64,000 nt of DNA from Spongiibacteraceae bacterium (GCA_047602265.1 JASGHU010000001.1:1154346-1218345); one strand, 5' to 3'; shown: positions 7,826-11,772, counted from the first letter of the stretch. Numbers and translations are program-made. Notes: a model not told the origin generated them from the letters alone.

Positions 7826-9556
7826 ATGAACGATACATACACGACATTCGCACACATGATTCGATTCGTTCGCTATTGCTTGCTGGTGTTGTGCTGTTGT
7901 GGCGCGGCAAGCGCGGCGGATTTCGATCACACCAAAACCGGATTTGCGCTGGAGGGGCCGCACGCACATATCGCCTGCGAAAGTTGTCACGTGCGCGGAC
8001 AATTCAAAGGTACACCGCGCAATTGTGCGGGTTGTCATACGCCGGGAACGATGGTTTCAGCATCGGCAAAATCGCCGAAGCACATTAATTCGACGGCCGA
8101 TTGCGCAGCGTGTCATCGCAGTGTGACGAGTTGGGATTCTGTCACGCGCGTCGATCACACGGCCGTGCTCGGTAATTGCGGCAGTTGTCATAACAATCGT
8201 CTGGTCGCAGGTAAACCGGCGGGACATATTCAGTCGGGCGACGATTGCAAATCCTGTCATAACACCAGTTTGTGGAGCGCTGCAGGTTTTGATCACACCG
8301 GCATCACCGGCAATTGTGTGAGCTGTCATAACGGTCAAACCGCGCCGGGTAAATCGGCGGATCACGTCACCGCGAGCAATACTTGCGAGAGTTGTCATTC
8401 AACGCGCGCATGGTTGCCGGCGCGTTTCGATCACGCGGGTATTTCGAGTAATTGCGTGAGCTGCCATAACGGCACGCGCTTCACCGGAAAATCGAGCAGC
8501 CATATCGCGTCGTCAAATCTTTGCGAGTCTTGTCACGGCACTGCGATGTGGGTGCCGGCAACGCATGTCGATCACACACAGGTGACGGGTTCGTGCGCGA
8601 GTTGCCATAACGGCACGATTACGACGGGAAAAAATCCGACGCACATCGCGAGCACCAATGCGTGCGAAGCGTGTCATTCGACGAGTGTGTGGAGTCCGGT
8701 GACGCGTGTCGATCACGCGCAAGTGACCGGTTCGTGTTCGAGTTGCCATAACGGCGTCAAAGCCACGGGAAAAAATCCAACACACATCGCCAGCACGAAT
8801 ACTTGTCAGGCGTGTCACTCGGTGAGCGTGTGGAATCCTGCAACGCGTGTCGATCACACGCAGGTGACGGGTTCGTGCGCGAGTTGCCACAACGGCACCA
8901 CGGCAATTGGAAAATCGCCGAGCCATATCGCCACCAATTCGAGTTGCGATTTATGCCATACCACGAGTGCGTGGTCGCCGACGCATTTCGATCACAGCGG
9001 CGTTAGCGGAACGTGCGCGAGTTGTCACAACGGCACCACCGCGACGGGAAAATCACCGAGCCATATCAGTACGACATCGAATTGCGATTTATGTCATACC
9101 ACGAGCGCGTGGTCGCCAACGCATTTCAATCACAGCGGTGTCACGGGTACGTGCGCGAGTTGCCATAACGGCACCACCGCCACGGGAAAAAGCCCGACCC
9201 ATATTGCGAGCACCAATGCGTGCGAAGCGTGTCACTCGACCGCAGGTTGGAGTCCGGCAACACGCGTCGATCACACGCAGGTCACCGGTTCGTGTTCGAG
9301 TTGCCACAACGGCACCACGGCAACTGGTAAATCGCTCACGCATCCGGGCACCACAAATACCTGCGATGCCTGCCACAGCACCACTGCGTGGTCGCCGCTG
9401 CGGCGCATGGATCACACGCAATTATTGTCGACCACGCGCTGCGATAGCTGTCACTTGAACGATAAGCCGCGCGATCATCCAAGCACGGGCGGCAAAGATT
9501 GCGGCGCGTCGGGTTGTCACGGCACCGCGCACAATTACACGTCGTGGAGCAGGTAG
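7826..9556 (+). CDS. 22-heme (plus one CX4CH site) c-type cytochrome: an N-terminal c7-like triheme followed by ten tandem di-heme units
   Basis: I counted 22 CXXCH motifs plus CGASGCH near the C-terminus. The unit motif is (R/H)(V/F)DH..V.G.C.SCHNG..A.GK...HI.....C..CH....W.P. A signal peptide is present (MIRFVRYCLLVLCCCGAASA|AD). Confidence 0.9.
   Translation: MNDTYTTFAHMIRFVRYCLLVLCCCGAASAADFDHTKTGFALEGPHAHIACESCHVRGQFKGTPRNCAGCHTPGTMVSASAKSPKHINSTADCAACHRSVTSWDSVTRVDHTAVLGNCGSCHNNRLVAGKPAGHIQSGDDCKSCHNTSLWSAAGFDHTGITGNCVSCHNGQTAPGKSADHVTASNTCESCHSTRAWLPARFDHAGISSNCVSCHNGTRFTGKSSSHIASSNLCESCHGTAMWVPATHVDHTQVTGSCASCHNGTITTGKNPTHIASTNACEACHSTSVWSPVTRVDHAQVTGSCSSCHNGVKATGKNPTHIASTNTCQACHSVSVWNPATRVDHTQVTGSCASCHNGTTAIGKSPSHIATNSSCDLCHTTSAWSPTHFDHSGVSGTCASCHNGTTATGKSPSHISTTSNCDLCHTTSAWSPTHFNHSGVTGTCASCHNGTTATGKSPTHIASTNACEACHSTAGWSPATRVDHTQVTGSCSSCHNGTTATGKSLTHPGTTNTCDACHSTTAWSPLRRMDHTQLLSTTRCDSCHLNDKPRDHPSTGGKDCGASGCHGTAHNYTSWSR
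8144..9454 (+). repeat. Intragenic tandem repeat array, period 138-141 bp (46-47 aa, two heme sites per unit), about 10 units
   Basis: The unit anchor residue, Asp in nine units and Asn at 435, falls at residues 110, 156, 202, 249, 296, 343, 389, 435, 482 and 529. The adjacent units 8909-9046 and 9047-9184 match at about 118 of 138 positions by manual alignment. Confidence 0.85.
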
Positions 9557-11772
9557 TGCGATTGCAGCGATCAAAACGGATTATTGCTGCAGGGATTTTT
9601 GCGGTTGTTGGTTCGACGTTCGGCGCGTCTTCGGTATTTGCTGGCAGCGTGGTCGATCGCGCAGAAATTCGTCTCGCCGAAAAATACGCCGATGTTGAAA
9701 TTAAATTCAACGTGCCGATCAATATCGGCGCCTATGCGCCGACCTCGCGTGGCGAATTGCTGCAAATCGAAATCGAATTGCCTCTCGACGCTGAGGTGAG
9801 CAACGCGGTGCGCCTCGGGGCCACTGAGTGGATGGCCGGCAGTCAACCGAGTGCGTACACGTTGTACGACTACATTCGTTTCGATCGCAGGCGGGAACCG
9901 AATCGAGGCAGACTTGTTGTTAAATTTTTTAAAAATGTCGATTTCACGGTTTATAAAAGTGCGGATTCGCGCTCGGTAGTCATTTCCATCGTAAGAGCCG
10001 ATGTGCCCGTGCAAAGACCGGAAAAGTTGCCGGGGCAGTCGAAATTATTGCCGGAAATTGTGCGGGTTGAGCCTGCGAAAACTTTCGAAAAATCGCAGAT
10101 CGTGCAAACGCCGGTCGAGCAGGCGCCGCTGCTGATAACGACATTGCCGTCGCTAGAAGAAACCTCGAAAGCTCAGGTGGAAAAATCGCCTTCGCCTGAA
10201 ATTAAAAAAGCAGACGAAGAGCTGGTTGATGTTTCCAGTATGAACGTTTTGCCGGGATACTCGACACCGACACCGACACCGACACCGACACCGACACCGA
10301 CACCGACACCGACACCGACACCGACACCGACACCGACACTCGAAAAAGAATCGCCGCCCGTTGCGGTGGATAGTGCGCAGCCAGAAATAGCGCCTGTAAA
10401 AGTCGCAGCGAAAAATGATGGCTGGCGTGTATATGGCGATTTTTCGCAGTTTTACAATTATGGCGATATCAAAATCGATCGCAGCGGCGATGCGCGGTTT
10501 AATAGCAGCGATTCGAAAACATCGCAGAATAATTTACGCAGTTATTTGAATTTAAATGCGCGTTACCGCGACGAGGATTGGGATGTGCGCTCGCGCCTTG
10601 GCGTGGGTTATCGCAACGATTTTCTGGATCACTCGCAGGATACGTTTACTTCGCGCTATGCCGGCAATAAATTCCTGCTGAGCGATGCCTATATCGATGT
10701 GCGCAGTCGACGCAGCGATATGTCGGCAAAAATCGGCCGCCAGTACGGCAGCAGTGGCGGTGTGTTCGGGCGTTTCGATGGTGCTCAGGTCGGTGTGCCG
10801 ATCAGCGGCGACTGGCGCGCGAATATCGTTGCCGGATCGCCGGTCGATTTGATTTACGACAAAACCGTCGACGATACCAATCGCTATTTTTACGGCGCGA
10901 ATGTGGATTTCGCACCGAAAGGCAAGCATTGGCAAACCAATGTGTACGCGATACAGGAAACGATCGACGGCATGATCAATCGTCGCGCCGTCGGCAACGA
11001 GACGCGTTATTACGGCGAGGGCCGTTCACTGCTTACGTTGCTCGATTACGATATCGAATACAGCGAATTGAGTCGCGTGTTGGTGATCGGCAATTGGAGC
11101 CCATTCAAAAGCACGGTGCTCAATGCAACGCTCGATGCGGGTTACAGCCCGTTGCTGAGTACGCGCAATGCGCTCATTTCGCAGCCCGATTATCGTTCGA
11201 TCAAAGAATTGCAGCGCGTTTATAGCGACGCGGAAATTCAACAATTGGCGCGTGATCGCACCGCCGAGTTTCATAACATCTTGCTCAGCGCAACGCAGCA
11301 ACTCAGCGAGTTGGCGCAAATCTATGCCAGCGTCGGCGAATATTATTACGGCGCGCTGCCGGCATCGGGCGGGGTCGATGCGATTCCGGCAACCGGAAAT
11401 GAATACGATTATTCGCTGCAATACATTCGCACGAGTCTGCTGCAGAAAGACGATACGCATTCGTTTGGATTACGCCATTACGACGGCAGCTTCGCGCGTA
11501 GCAATGCAATCGGTGTCGATGCGCGTTACGCGTGGGGCGCGCACTGGCGCTTGAATCCGCGGTTGTGGATCGAACGTCGCAATAATCTGAACGATGGCAG
11601 CAGTGAGTGGGTTTATCGCCCGGCGGTGCGCATCGAGTACAGCTTTATGCGCCGCTATCACATCGAGCTGGAAGCGAGCAGCGATATTTATAAAGGCGAT
11701 ATTCCTGAAGTCGGTACGCAGGATATCGTCGGCAACTTTTTTCAGCTCGGCTATCGCATCGATTTAGACTGA
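9556..11772 (+). CDS. Putative outer-membrane protein: signal peptide, AMIN-like domain, Pro/Glu/Lys-rich linker with (Thr-Pro)12, and a C-terminal beta-barrel-like domain of about 450 aa
   Basis: GTG at 9556 overlaps the cytochrome stop (TAGTG) and gives VRLQRSKRIIAAGIFAVVGSTFGASSVFA|G. The AMIN-like region reads AEIRLAEKYADVEIKFNV...RGRLVVKFFKNVDFTVYKSADSRSVVISIV. The C-terminal part shows an alternating hydrophobic/aromatic strand pattern ending in GNFFQLGYRIDLD. The domain calls come from pattern recognition only. Confidence 0.65.
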   Translation: MRLQRSKRIIAAGIFAVVGSTFGASSVFAGSVVDRAEIRLAEKYADVEIKFNVPINIGAYAPTSRGELLQIEIELPLDAEVSNAVRLGATEWMAGSQPSAYTLYDYIRFDRRREPNRGRLVVKFFKNVDFTVYKSADSRSVVISIVRADVPVQRPEKLPGQSKLLPEIVRVEPAKTFEKSQIVQTPVEQAPLLITTLPSLEETSKAQVEKSPSPEIKKADEELVDVSSMNVLPGYSTPTPTPTPTPTPTPTPTPTPTPTPTLEKESPPVAVDSAQPEIAPVKVAAKNDGWRVYGDFSQFYNYGDIKIDRSGDARFNSSDSKTSQNNLRSYLNLNARYRDEDWDVRSRLGVGYRNDFLDHSQDTFTSRYAGNKFLLSDAYIDVRSRRSDMSAKIGRQYGSSGGVFGRFDGAQVGVPISGDWRANIVAGSPVDLIYDKTVDDTNRYFYGANVDFAPKGKHWQTNVYAIQETIDGMINRRAVGNETRYYGEGRSLLTLLDYDIEYSELSRVLVIGNWSPFKSTVLNATLDAGYSPLLSTRNALISQPDYRSIKELQRVYSDAEIQQLARDRTAEFHNILLSATQQLSELAQIYASVGEYYYGALPASGGVDAIPATGNEYDYSLQYIRTSLLQKDDTHSFGLRHYDGSFARSNAIGVDARYAWGAHWRLNPRLWIERRNNLNDGSSEWVYRPAVRIEYSFMRRYHIELEASSDIYKGDIPEVGTQDIVGNFFQLGYRIDLD
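10264..10338 (+). repeat. Perfect hexanucleotide microsatellite (ACACCG)x12 + ACA encoding (Thr-Pro)12-Thr
   Basis: Read directly from the sequence: 75 nt with no deviation from the ACACCG unit, in frame within the 9556-11772 CDS. Confidence 0.95.

Follow-up and report, generated by a model that had tools for sequence, protein, structure and literature searches.

The open reading frame (ORF) at positions 9556-11772 of a 64,000-nucleotide stretch of a Spongiibacteraceae bacterium genome (GCA_047602265.1, JASGHU010000001.1:1154346-1218345; this whole stretch is from now on referred to as the window) is close to certain to encode the porin of a PCC3 system, a porin-cytochrome cluster predicted from genomes by He et al. 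(2017, Front Microbiol 8:1584; PMC5566968). The encoded protein probably acts in the outer membrane as a subunit of a porin-cytochrome conduit of the PCC3 type, combining a barrel that serves as a sheath with an N-terminal domain (N-domain) that stays tethered in the periplasm. Apparently undescribed are the periplasmic AMIN-like domain on a long tether and the modular architecture of this porin family, of which the window protein represents a reduced variant. In the literature, no mention was found of PCC3 porins in the context of an AMIN-like domain, SPOR, TPR or peptidoglycan, or of a separate gene for the N-domain.

Identification of a PCC3 operon and its porin

PCC3 clusters have been described as encoding a conserved inner-membrane protein of ~300 amino acids (aa), which is characterized by an SGXXG motif and two copies of WX3HX13H, together with a periplasmic cytochrome that has very few aa per heme (median 21 hemes), an extracellular cytochrome rich in repeats and in T, S, A and G, and a porin (PMC5566968). 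Gene set and gene order of the window operon are the same as those of published PCC3 clusters (He et al. 2017; Hoover et al. 2023, mSystems). The inner-membrane protein of the window, for which family searches returned no match, contains WFRTH at residue 88 and WHVLH at residue 259, each followed after 13 residues by a further H, as well as SGLIG at residue 129, and its gene is present at 15 of 17 related loci. The PCC3 cytochromes of Amphritea atlantica DSM 18887 carry 63 and 21 hemes (PMC5566968), and at the corresponding locus (L061) ORFs with 21 and 63 CXXCH motifs are found directly 5' of a homolog of the window barrel (33% identity, E 3e-74). Because it is homologous to the porin of this published cluster, ORF 9556-11772 can be assigned as a PCC3 porin. 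The window thus holds the inner-membrane motifs, a 21-heme cytochrome, a T/S/A/G-rich cytochrome and a porin homologous to a published PCC3 porin. It should be noted that the operon is a known PCC3 system and not a new kind of system, and that the pairing of porin and cytochromes is not new either, since the cluster has already been published, as a bioinformatic prediction only.

The porin gene starts with a GTG codon (9556-9558) whose first base, G9556, is also the last base of the TAG stop codon (9554-9556) of the preceding cytochrome gene (TAGTG), and a GGAG sequence lies 6 nucleotides 5' of this start. The start position is the same in the alignment of close homologs, and a similar overlap of the porin gene with its preceding gene is seen at loci L001 and L002. 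A preliminary description of this DNA had proposed the shared nucleotide, a signal peptide and a four-part layout consisting of signal peptide, beta domain, linker and barrel. The one-base overlap can be read directly and agrees with the homologs, the signal peptide (residues 1-29) is borne out by its sequence, and the layout reappears in a whole-protein AlphaFold2 (AF2) model computed from 65 sequences, with a mean predicted local distance difference test score (pLDDT) of 78 and a predicted template modeling score (pTM) of 0.73. In this model, the signal-peptide region forms a helix at residues 4-19 with low pLDDT, and the N-termini of homologs share the same layout.

A database search identified 64 homologs of the porin. 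Further, a scan of one genome per species for the family motif [GA]GV[FL]GRFDG, run with a 17-sequence alignment as the 65-sequence alignment was too diverse, located relatives in at least 488 species genomes. Genome neighborhoods were compared at those 44 related loci for which 6 kb or more of sequence upstream was available, by counting CXXCH motifs in same-strand ORFs within 8 kb 5' of the barrel gene. An ORF with at least 10 motifs is present at 41 of them, and 35 loci encode one with exactly 21. The remaining three consist of one locus with masked sequence and two with short barrel-only ORFs. In metagenomic homologs at ~30% identity (L003, L004, L005), the porin gene likewise has the cytochromes and the membrane protein as neighbors, and often also a ccm operon. 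Homologs are therefore not consistently found beside unrelated genes, an outcome that the preliminary description had named as speaking against its interpretation, and given this number of homologs and genomes and the conserved synteny, the ORF as described is not a chance finding.

The same observations bear on a simpler explanation, namely that the protein is an ordinary diffusion or substrate porin, or an OmpA-like tether between outer membrane and cell wall, which happens to be encoded next to cytochromes and has no role in electron transfer. Some family members show weak Pfam likeness to the generic barrel families OMP_b-brl, DUF481, KdgM and Phenol_MetA_deg, and no heme motif was found in the porin protein. 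However, the synteny with giant cytochromes is kept in homologs with as little as ~25-35% identity and in several proteobacterial classes, the gene shares a base of its start codon with the cytochrome stop codon, and charged residues are invariant within the barrel. This explanation is strongly disfavoured and can be considered very improbable.

Table 1 Positions of the porin gene, its parts and the other operon features in the window
Feature	Position	Strand	Basis
Whole gene, PCC3-type porin, 738 aa	9556..11772	+	Uninterrupted frame; aligned homolog starts; 64 homologs
Signal peptide, residues 1-29	9556..9642	+	By-eye reading: basic n-region RLQRSKR, hydrophobic core, cleavage site between VFA and G
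N-domain, residues ~31-150, AMIN-like 4+4-strand beta sandwich (predicted)	9646..10005	+	AF2, Foldseek, profile search
Disordered P/T/E/V/S/K-rich linker, residues ~151-285	10006..10410	+	pLDDT, composition, alignment
(TP)12, residues 237-260, 12 perfect ACACCG units in tandem	10264..10335	+	Sequence count
C-terminal beta-barrel (predicted), residues ~286-738	10411..11769	+	AF2 strands, pLDDT mostly >90; Foldseek
Family-invariant motif GRQYGSSGGVFGRFDG, residues 394-409, strands 5 and 6 with intervening loop	10735..10782	+	65- and 70-sequence alignments
Long conserved loop with three short helices, strands 13-14, residues 532-569	11149..11262	+	AF2; conservation
First operon gene, small CcmH/CycH/NrfG-like TPR protein	4826..5365	+	Pfam TPR_CcmH_CycH E 1.7e-9, NrfG E 0.0012
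PCC3 inner-membrane protein, 284 aa, putative di-heme b	5362..6216	+	Two WX3HX13H motifs, SGXXG
Equivalent of the PCC3 'periplasmic' cytochrome, 537 aa, 21 CXXCH	6191..7804	+	Motif count
Equivalent of the PCC3 'extracellular' cytochrome, 576 aa, 22 CXXCH and 1 CX4CH	7826..9556	+	Motif count; description in PMC5566968
Terminator-like hairpin, 30 nucleotides past the stop codon	11801..11818	+	Consensus scan only

The C-terminal domain is predicted to form a 22-strand barrel

The preliminary description had viewed the C-terminal ~450 aa as a beta-barrel, and the AF2 model supports this as a confident prediction with 22 strands assigned by DSSP between residues 289 and 737 and a C-terminal end reading GNFFQLGYRIDLD. 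When the barrel model was compared with the PDB using Foldseek, only outer-membrane barrels were returned (FimD, MOMP, OprD/Occ, AlgE, FadL and PqqU), all with low TM-scores of at most about 0.5. No Pfam, NCBIfam or PDB sequence match was found for the barrel region, and the barrel is without a close solved relative. As only generic barrels were matched at these scores, FimD as top Foldseek match does not count as evidence for usher homology. Assignments to exopolysaccharide exporters of the PgaA/BcsC type or to Slam-like proteins were considered because relatives of the window protein carry TPR modules. Most family members, though not the window protein, indeed resemble Slam, PgaA, BcsC and PelB in having TPR motifs, here a pair directly before the barrel. 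However, the PCC3 porin family has two TPR motifs only and no long superhelix, its barrel has 22 strands as opposed to 14-18 in Slam, PgaA, BcsC and PelB, and TPR motifs are missing from the window protein altogether, so that these assignments were rejected.

The invariant positions of the barrel include charged and glycine residues. The motif spanning strands 5 and 6 contains G394, R395, Q396, G402, R406, F407, D408 and G409, which are invariant in alignments of 65 and 70 sequences, as are R476, G480, E482, D497 and D499 elsewhere in the barrel. Invariant charged and glycine residues would not usually be expected in a diffusion porin and fit better with a specific interface to another protein. 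A second conserved element is the 38-residue loop between strands 13 and 14, which contains short helices at residues 536-540, 549-552 and 558-567. P532 and R568 of this loop are invariant, while L534, A539, A565 and D567 are nearly invariant. Because the N-terminal modules are periplasmic, strand 1 must run outward. Most extracellular loops would therefore be at most 6 residues long, and the helical loop 532-569 would face the cell exterior or the lumen. Textbook barrel geometry with n=22 and a shear number of ~24 gives a C-alpha diameter of ~4 nm and a lumen of ~3 nm. A predicted barrel of ~4 nm could plausibly hold a heme wire with ~25 aa per heme.

PCC3 porins have so far been treated as a barrel alone with up to 42 predicted transmembrane segments (PMC5566968). 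Compared with this description, the model of the window porin has 22 strands and an additional periplasmic N-domain, and PCC3 porins can no longer be seen as 40-strand giants. Similar to MtrB, MtoB and PioB, the window barrel is encoded next to periplasmic and surface multiheme cytochrome genes, and its presumed role is likewise that of a sheath for a heme wire crossing the outer membrane. It differs from them by the lack of any MtrB_PioB match (Pfam or NCBIfam) and of any MtrB sequence match in the PDB and by having 22 rather than ~26 strands, in line with the preliminary description, which had placed it outside the MtrB, PioB and OmbB families. The partner cytochromes of MtrB-type barrels carry 10 hemes, those of the window porin 21-23. 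MtrB is not known to have periplasmic N-terminal domains (PDB ID: 6R2Q).

Since no relationship between the window barrel and MtrB is detectable, the sheath idea is based on analogy with MtrCAB, on which ground the barrel may well act as a sheath. Alternatively, the barrel could mainly represent an export or assembly channel for the protein-poor extracellular heme wire, similar to an usher or to two-partner secretion, and might afterwards stay in place as a sheath. The cytochrome encoded directly upstream has a type-I signal peptide and no lipobox, its relatives contain up to 63 hemes, and tight coupling links its gene with that of the barrel. Genes dedicated to secretion were not seen in the cluster at the loci examined. 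Further, most predicted extracellular loops are very short, which suggests an open cylinder, the FimD usher is the top Foldseek match, and the TPR modules of relatives, which give weak TPR_Slam matches, recall the Slam, PgaA and BcsC exporters. However, the FimD match (TM ~0.3) is no better than that of many unrelated barrels, the extracellular site of the second cytochrome is itself a prediction, and the TPR module is lost in the window protein. A type II secretion system located elsewhere in the genome could also serve this purpose, as it does for MtrC, which is exported by type II secretion. A primary function in export is thus considered unlikely.

An AMIN-like N-domain is connected to the barrel by a disordered linker

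The N-domain comprises ~115 aa and is beta-rich at residues 33-146 of the whole-protein model. A separate AF2 model of residues 28-152 reached a pLDDT of 87 and a pTM of 0.82 and consists of 4+4 strands. The three best Foldseek matches of this model are AmiC of E. coli (4bin, E 1.9e-4), PilQ of N. meningitidis (4av2) and the PilQ B2/AMIN structure 4aqz, while PilQ of M. xanthus is found at rank 15. The AMIN domain of PilQ and AmiC binds peptidoglycan. The N-domain is predicted to adopt the same 4+4-strand beta sandwich as these AMIN domains, and its arrangement is also reminiscent of PilQ, where the domain is located N-terminal to an outer-membrane channel with a flexible segment in between. 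It differs from them in its size of ~115 aa compared to ~90-100 aa, in forming its own sequence family and in scoring under the Pfam AMIN threshold. In contrast to AmiC and PilQ, relatives carry a true AMIN or a SPOR domain besides the N-domain.

At the sequence level, P0004, a homolog with 58% identity, reaches 17.9 bits for AMIN against a cutoff of 20.5 and matches half a domain only, and an N-domain hidden Markov model (HMM) did not recognize the true AMIN domain of P0018 (E 0.5). The two-half beta pattern noted in the preliminary description is present in the predicted structure as 4+4 strands, but not in the sequence, where local alignment of the two halves gave a score of 19 compared with a shuffle mean of 21 and hence no internal repeat signal. 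The AMIN assignment of the preliminary description likewise stands for the predicted fold, with AmiC and PilQ as top matches, and not for the sequence family, for which Pfam and profile searches gave weak or negative results. The N-domain is best described as having a predicted AMIN-like fold without being a demonstrable member of the AMIN sequence family.

Among close homologs, the N-domain is far more conserved than the linker. A profile search of 1.84 billion representative proteins yielded 1142 N-domain matches, 701 of them at E<=1e-10. Because match lengths are bimodal (~150-235 aa and ~690-990 aa), the N-domain is apparently confined to free proteins and to the N-terminus of proteins as long as the porins, and the best 150 of the 1142 representatives show these two contexts and no other. 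Judged by these matches, the N-domain appears to constitute an unannotated PCC3-specific domain family.

The linker that follows shows pLDDT values below 50 and no secondary structure at residues 157-278 of the AF2 model. Its 135 residues include 27 P, 18 T, 14 E, 13 V, 11 S and 10 K. Disorder and the (TP)12 repeat had been correctly noted before, whereas the linker is ~125-135 aa long and P/T/E-rich rather than ~170 aa long and P/E/K-rich. Close homologs do not contain the repeat, and the linker around it is hypervariable in its sequence as well as its length, so that the (TP)12 stretch suggests a recent in-frame slippage expansion, which could vary the length of the tether.

Modular architecture of the PCC3 porin family

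Among 69 genomic homologs, Pfam analysis of the regions preceding the barrel identified a SPOR domain in 53, TPR motifs in at least 54 and a canonical AMIN domain in 2. All three are modules of the periplasm, and SPOR and AMIN are known to bind peptidoglycan. The SPOR region of the family matches DamX, and the best natural PDB match of the TPR pair is CpoB (E 3.7e-5). Architecture classes were then assigned with HMMs built from family alignments. The dominant form, found at 49 loci, is N-domain, SPOR, TPR and barrel, and 7 loci encode N-domain, TPR and barrel. At 19 loci the porin has no fused N-domain and a separate N-domain ORF is located between the second cytochrome and the porin. Such free N-domain ORFs encode proteins of ~150 aa with their own signal peptide, as exemplified by A. 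atlantica (L061 8601-9068). Free and fused copies occur together at 18 loci, which belong to the 49 of the dominant form, so that 37 loci in total have a separate copy. Free N-domain proteins of ~150-235 aa were also seen at L010, L018, L022, L030, L032, L042, L053 and others. The free N-domain gene would constitute a fifth conserved PCC3 gene, of which no mention was found in the PCC3 literature.

In the porins of L022, L032 and P0018, a true Pfam AMIN domain (E 4e-13 to 2e-14; residues 26-111 in P0018) replaces SPOR, which looks like a swap of peptidoglycan-binding modules within one porin family. L022 and L032, despite their canonical AMIN domain, still have a separate N-domain gene. By its distribution, the N-domain is a constant PCC3 component, with a recognized peptidoglycan binder (SPOR or AMIN) as an extra module.

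Compared with the wider family, in which SPOR is present in 53 and the TPR pair in at least 54 of 70 relatives, the window porin and its closest kin are without SPOR and TPR modules. In the HMM classification, a layout of N-domain, linker and barrel was assigned only to the window protein and L001, while the alignment shows it for the close homologs P0001-P0005 and P0007 as well. Neither Pfam nor family-specific HMMs detected SPOR or TPR in the window protein, and no other N-domain, SPOR or family-type TPR was found to be encoded elsewhere in the window. The linker occupies the position where relatives have the SPOR and TPR pair, and in comparison with the sister proteins P0006, P0008 and P0011 a clean deletion of the TPR pair is visible within a hypervariable P/A/T/E-rich region. 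Relative to most of the family, both modules have been lost in the window protein and in the proteins closest to it.

This architecture bears directly on the function of the N-domain. As recognized peptidoglycan binders occur besides it in the family, the N-domain may serve a purpose other than binding the sacculus. It could be a PCC3-specific subunit that docks a cytochrome or that caps or gates the barrel at its periplasmic end, in which case the window protein would have no peptidoglycan-binding part and the disordered linker would merely hold the N-domain close to its own barrel. The N-domain is near-universal in the family, either fused or as a secreted protein of ~155 aa, with both types of copy encoded together at 18 loci. 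Next to SPOR or to canonical AMIN (L022, L032, P0018), peptidoglycan binding of its own would be redundant. Its restriction to two contexts among the best 150 of 1142 representatives and its lack of Pfam AMIN membership point in the same direction. However, its predicted structure is most similar to the AMIN domains of AmiC and PilQ, which are associated with peptidoglycan, a clade-weighted profile gave M. xanthus PilQ as best, albeit weak, PDB match (E 0.042), and the partner interface is hypothetical. We therefore treat an adaptor function as the main, though tentative, alternative. Peptidoglycan binding by the N-domain of the window protein, which is perhaps the case, is itself somewhat doubtful.

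A more far-reaching interpretation would be that PCC3 is a wall-integrated trans-envelope machine, resembling the secretins of type IV pili rather than MtrCAB. In such a machine, the N-domain, fused or free, and the SPOR, AMIN or TPR modules would hold the barrel on the sacculus and lead the 21-heme wire through the peptidoglycan mesh, and the barrel would perhaps thread the protein-poor extracellular wire outward. The window protein would in this view represent a reduced form, with a disordered PT-rich tether in place of the rigid SPOR-TPR connector. We regard this interpretation as rather unlikely.

Proposed function of the window porin

Based on the favored reading, a conduit subunit with sheath barrel and tethered N-domain, the five genes of the operon would encode, in this order, a CcmH-like TPR helper, a putative di-heme b inner-membrane protein, a 21-heme cytochrome spanning the periplasm, a very protein-poor 23-heme 'wire' cytochrome and the porin. 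After Sec export, the C-terminal 450 residues of the porin would form a 22-strand barrel in the outer membrane and, by analogy with MtrB, sheathe part of one heme wire, most likely as a 1:1 complex of the barrel with the translationally coupled 23-heme cytochrome. The one-base gene overlap would favor matched output of these two proteins. This would allow electrons to pass through the outer membrane on their way between the quinone pool of the cell and a donor or acceptor outside it, in either direction. The N-domain would remain in the periplasm on its disordered tether of ~130 residues and anchor or position the conduit via peptidoglycan, a periplasmic partner, or both. The sheath function, the electron-transfer role and the binding partner of the N-domain are what we infer in this model, whereas the domain layout, the assignment to the PCC3 porins, the synteny with cytochromes, the AMIN-like fold and the loss of SPOR and TPR follow from the analysis.

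A number of observations weigh against this reading. PCC3 has been called functionally unverified in papers up to 2025. The barrel shows no detectable relationship to MtrB (Pfam, PDB sequence), and its closure, its lumen size and a possible plug formed by the 38-residue helical loop are features of a predicted model. With regard to the N-domain, Foldseek TM-scores against AMIN entries are only 0.44-0.51, the window protein has no match to Pfam AMIN (PF11741) at E<=0.1, and a balanced profile of the N-domain only, searched against the PDB, returned no AMIN chain and nothing relevant. The N-domain also co-occurs with SPOR or canonical AMIN and is often free, and may thus not be the wall-binding part, while the window protein is without recognized wall binders. 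Tethering of the window protein to the wall, as proposed in the preliminary description, is plausible in view of the AMIN-like fold, but the case is weaker than in relatives, as SPOR and canonical AMIN are missing here.

PCC3 systems are widespread, with iron oxidizers, sulfur oxidizers and vent symbionts among the species genomes identified above, and belong to the least understood candidate routes of extracellular electron transfer. The modular porin, made up of a 22-strand barrel, the N-domain, SPOR, AMIN or TPR modules and sometimes a separate N-domain gene, offers experimental handles on these systems. It also sharpens the question of how a periplasm-spanning heme wire sits relative to the cell wall.

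Cytochromes, helper protein and neighboring genes

Both cytochromes of the operon contain ~25 aa per heme. The one encoded directly upstream of the porin consists of T/S/G/A-rich repeats of ~23 aa, with a heme motif about every 23 residues. Its lone CX4CH motif, CGASGCH at residue 559 (window 9494-9514, residues 557-563), lies in the non-repeat C-terminal tail. The non-repeat N- and C-terminal segments resemble those of the 63-heme Amphritea protein, for which reason the termini may be docking parts.

The first operon gene encodes a putative apocytochrome chaperone whose Pfam TPR_CcmH_CycH match is under the gathering score, and equivalents are present at L001 and L002. At Thiobacillus-like loci, a full ccmABCDEFGH-I operon is located directly 3' of the porin gene (L003 3819-10790; L005 12465-19442). 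The CcmH-like first gene and these neighboring ccm operons suggest dedicated heme-attachment support for the giant cytochromes.

Two overlapping genes, 3261-4568 (-) and 1241-3343 (-), are located divergently from the operon. Their products are a 700-aa Sel1 and ankyrin-repeat protein and an oxidoreductase that combines two 4Fe-4S motifs and an FAD/NAD(P) domain with a hydrophobic segment at its N-terminus, a possible membrane anchor. Among 17 loci that extend at least 9 kb upstream, homologs of the oxidoreductase gene are found beside PCC3 at 10 and those of the Sel1/ankyrin gene at 9, and homologs are also present at L001, L002, L004 and L005. This pair may represent a cytoplasmic-side partner of the conduit.

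On the 3' side, the hairpin following the porin gene and a convergent gene (11865-12758, -) mark the end of the operon. The convergent gene encodes an OmpA-family peptidoglycan-binding protein with a glycine zipper and lies outside the conserved cluster at the other loci examined.

Among genomic relatives, the one closest to the barrel (75% identity) is located at a contig end (L006, CAZCNY010000009.1) of a metagenome-assembled genome labelled Verrucomicrobiaceae. All other close barrel relatives are gammaproteobacterial, for example P0009 from Spongiibacteraceae, and the bin assignment of L006 may be wrong.

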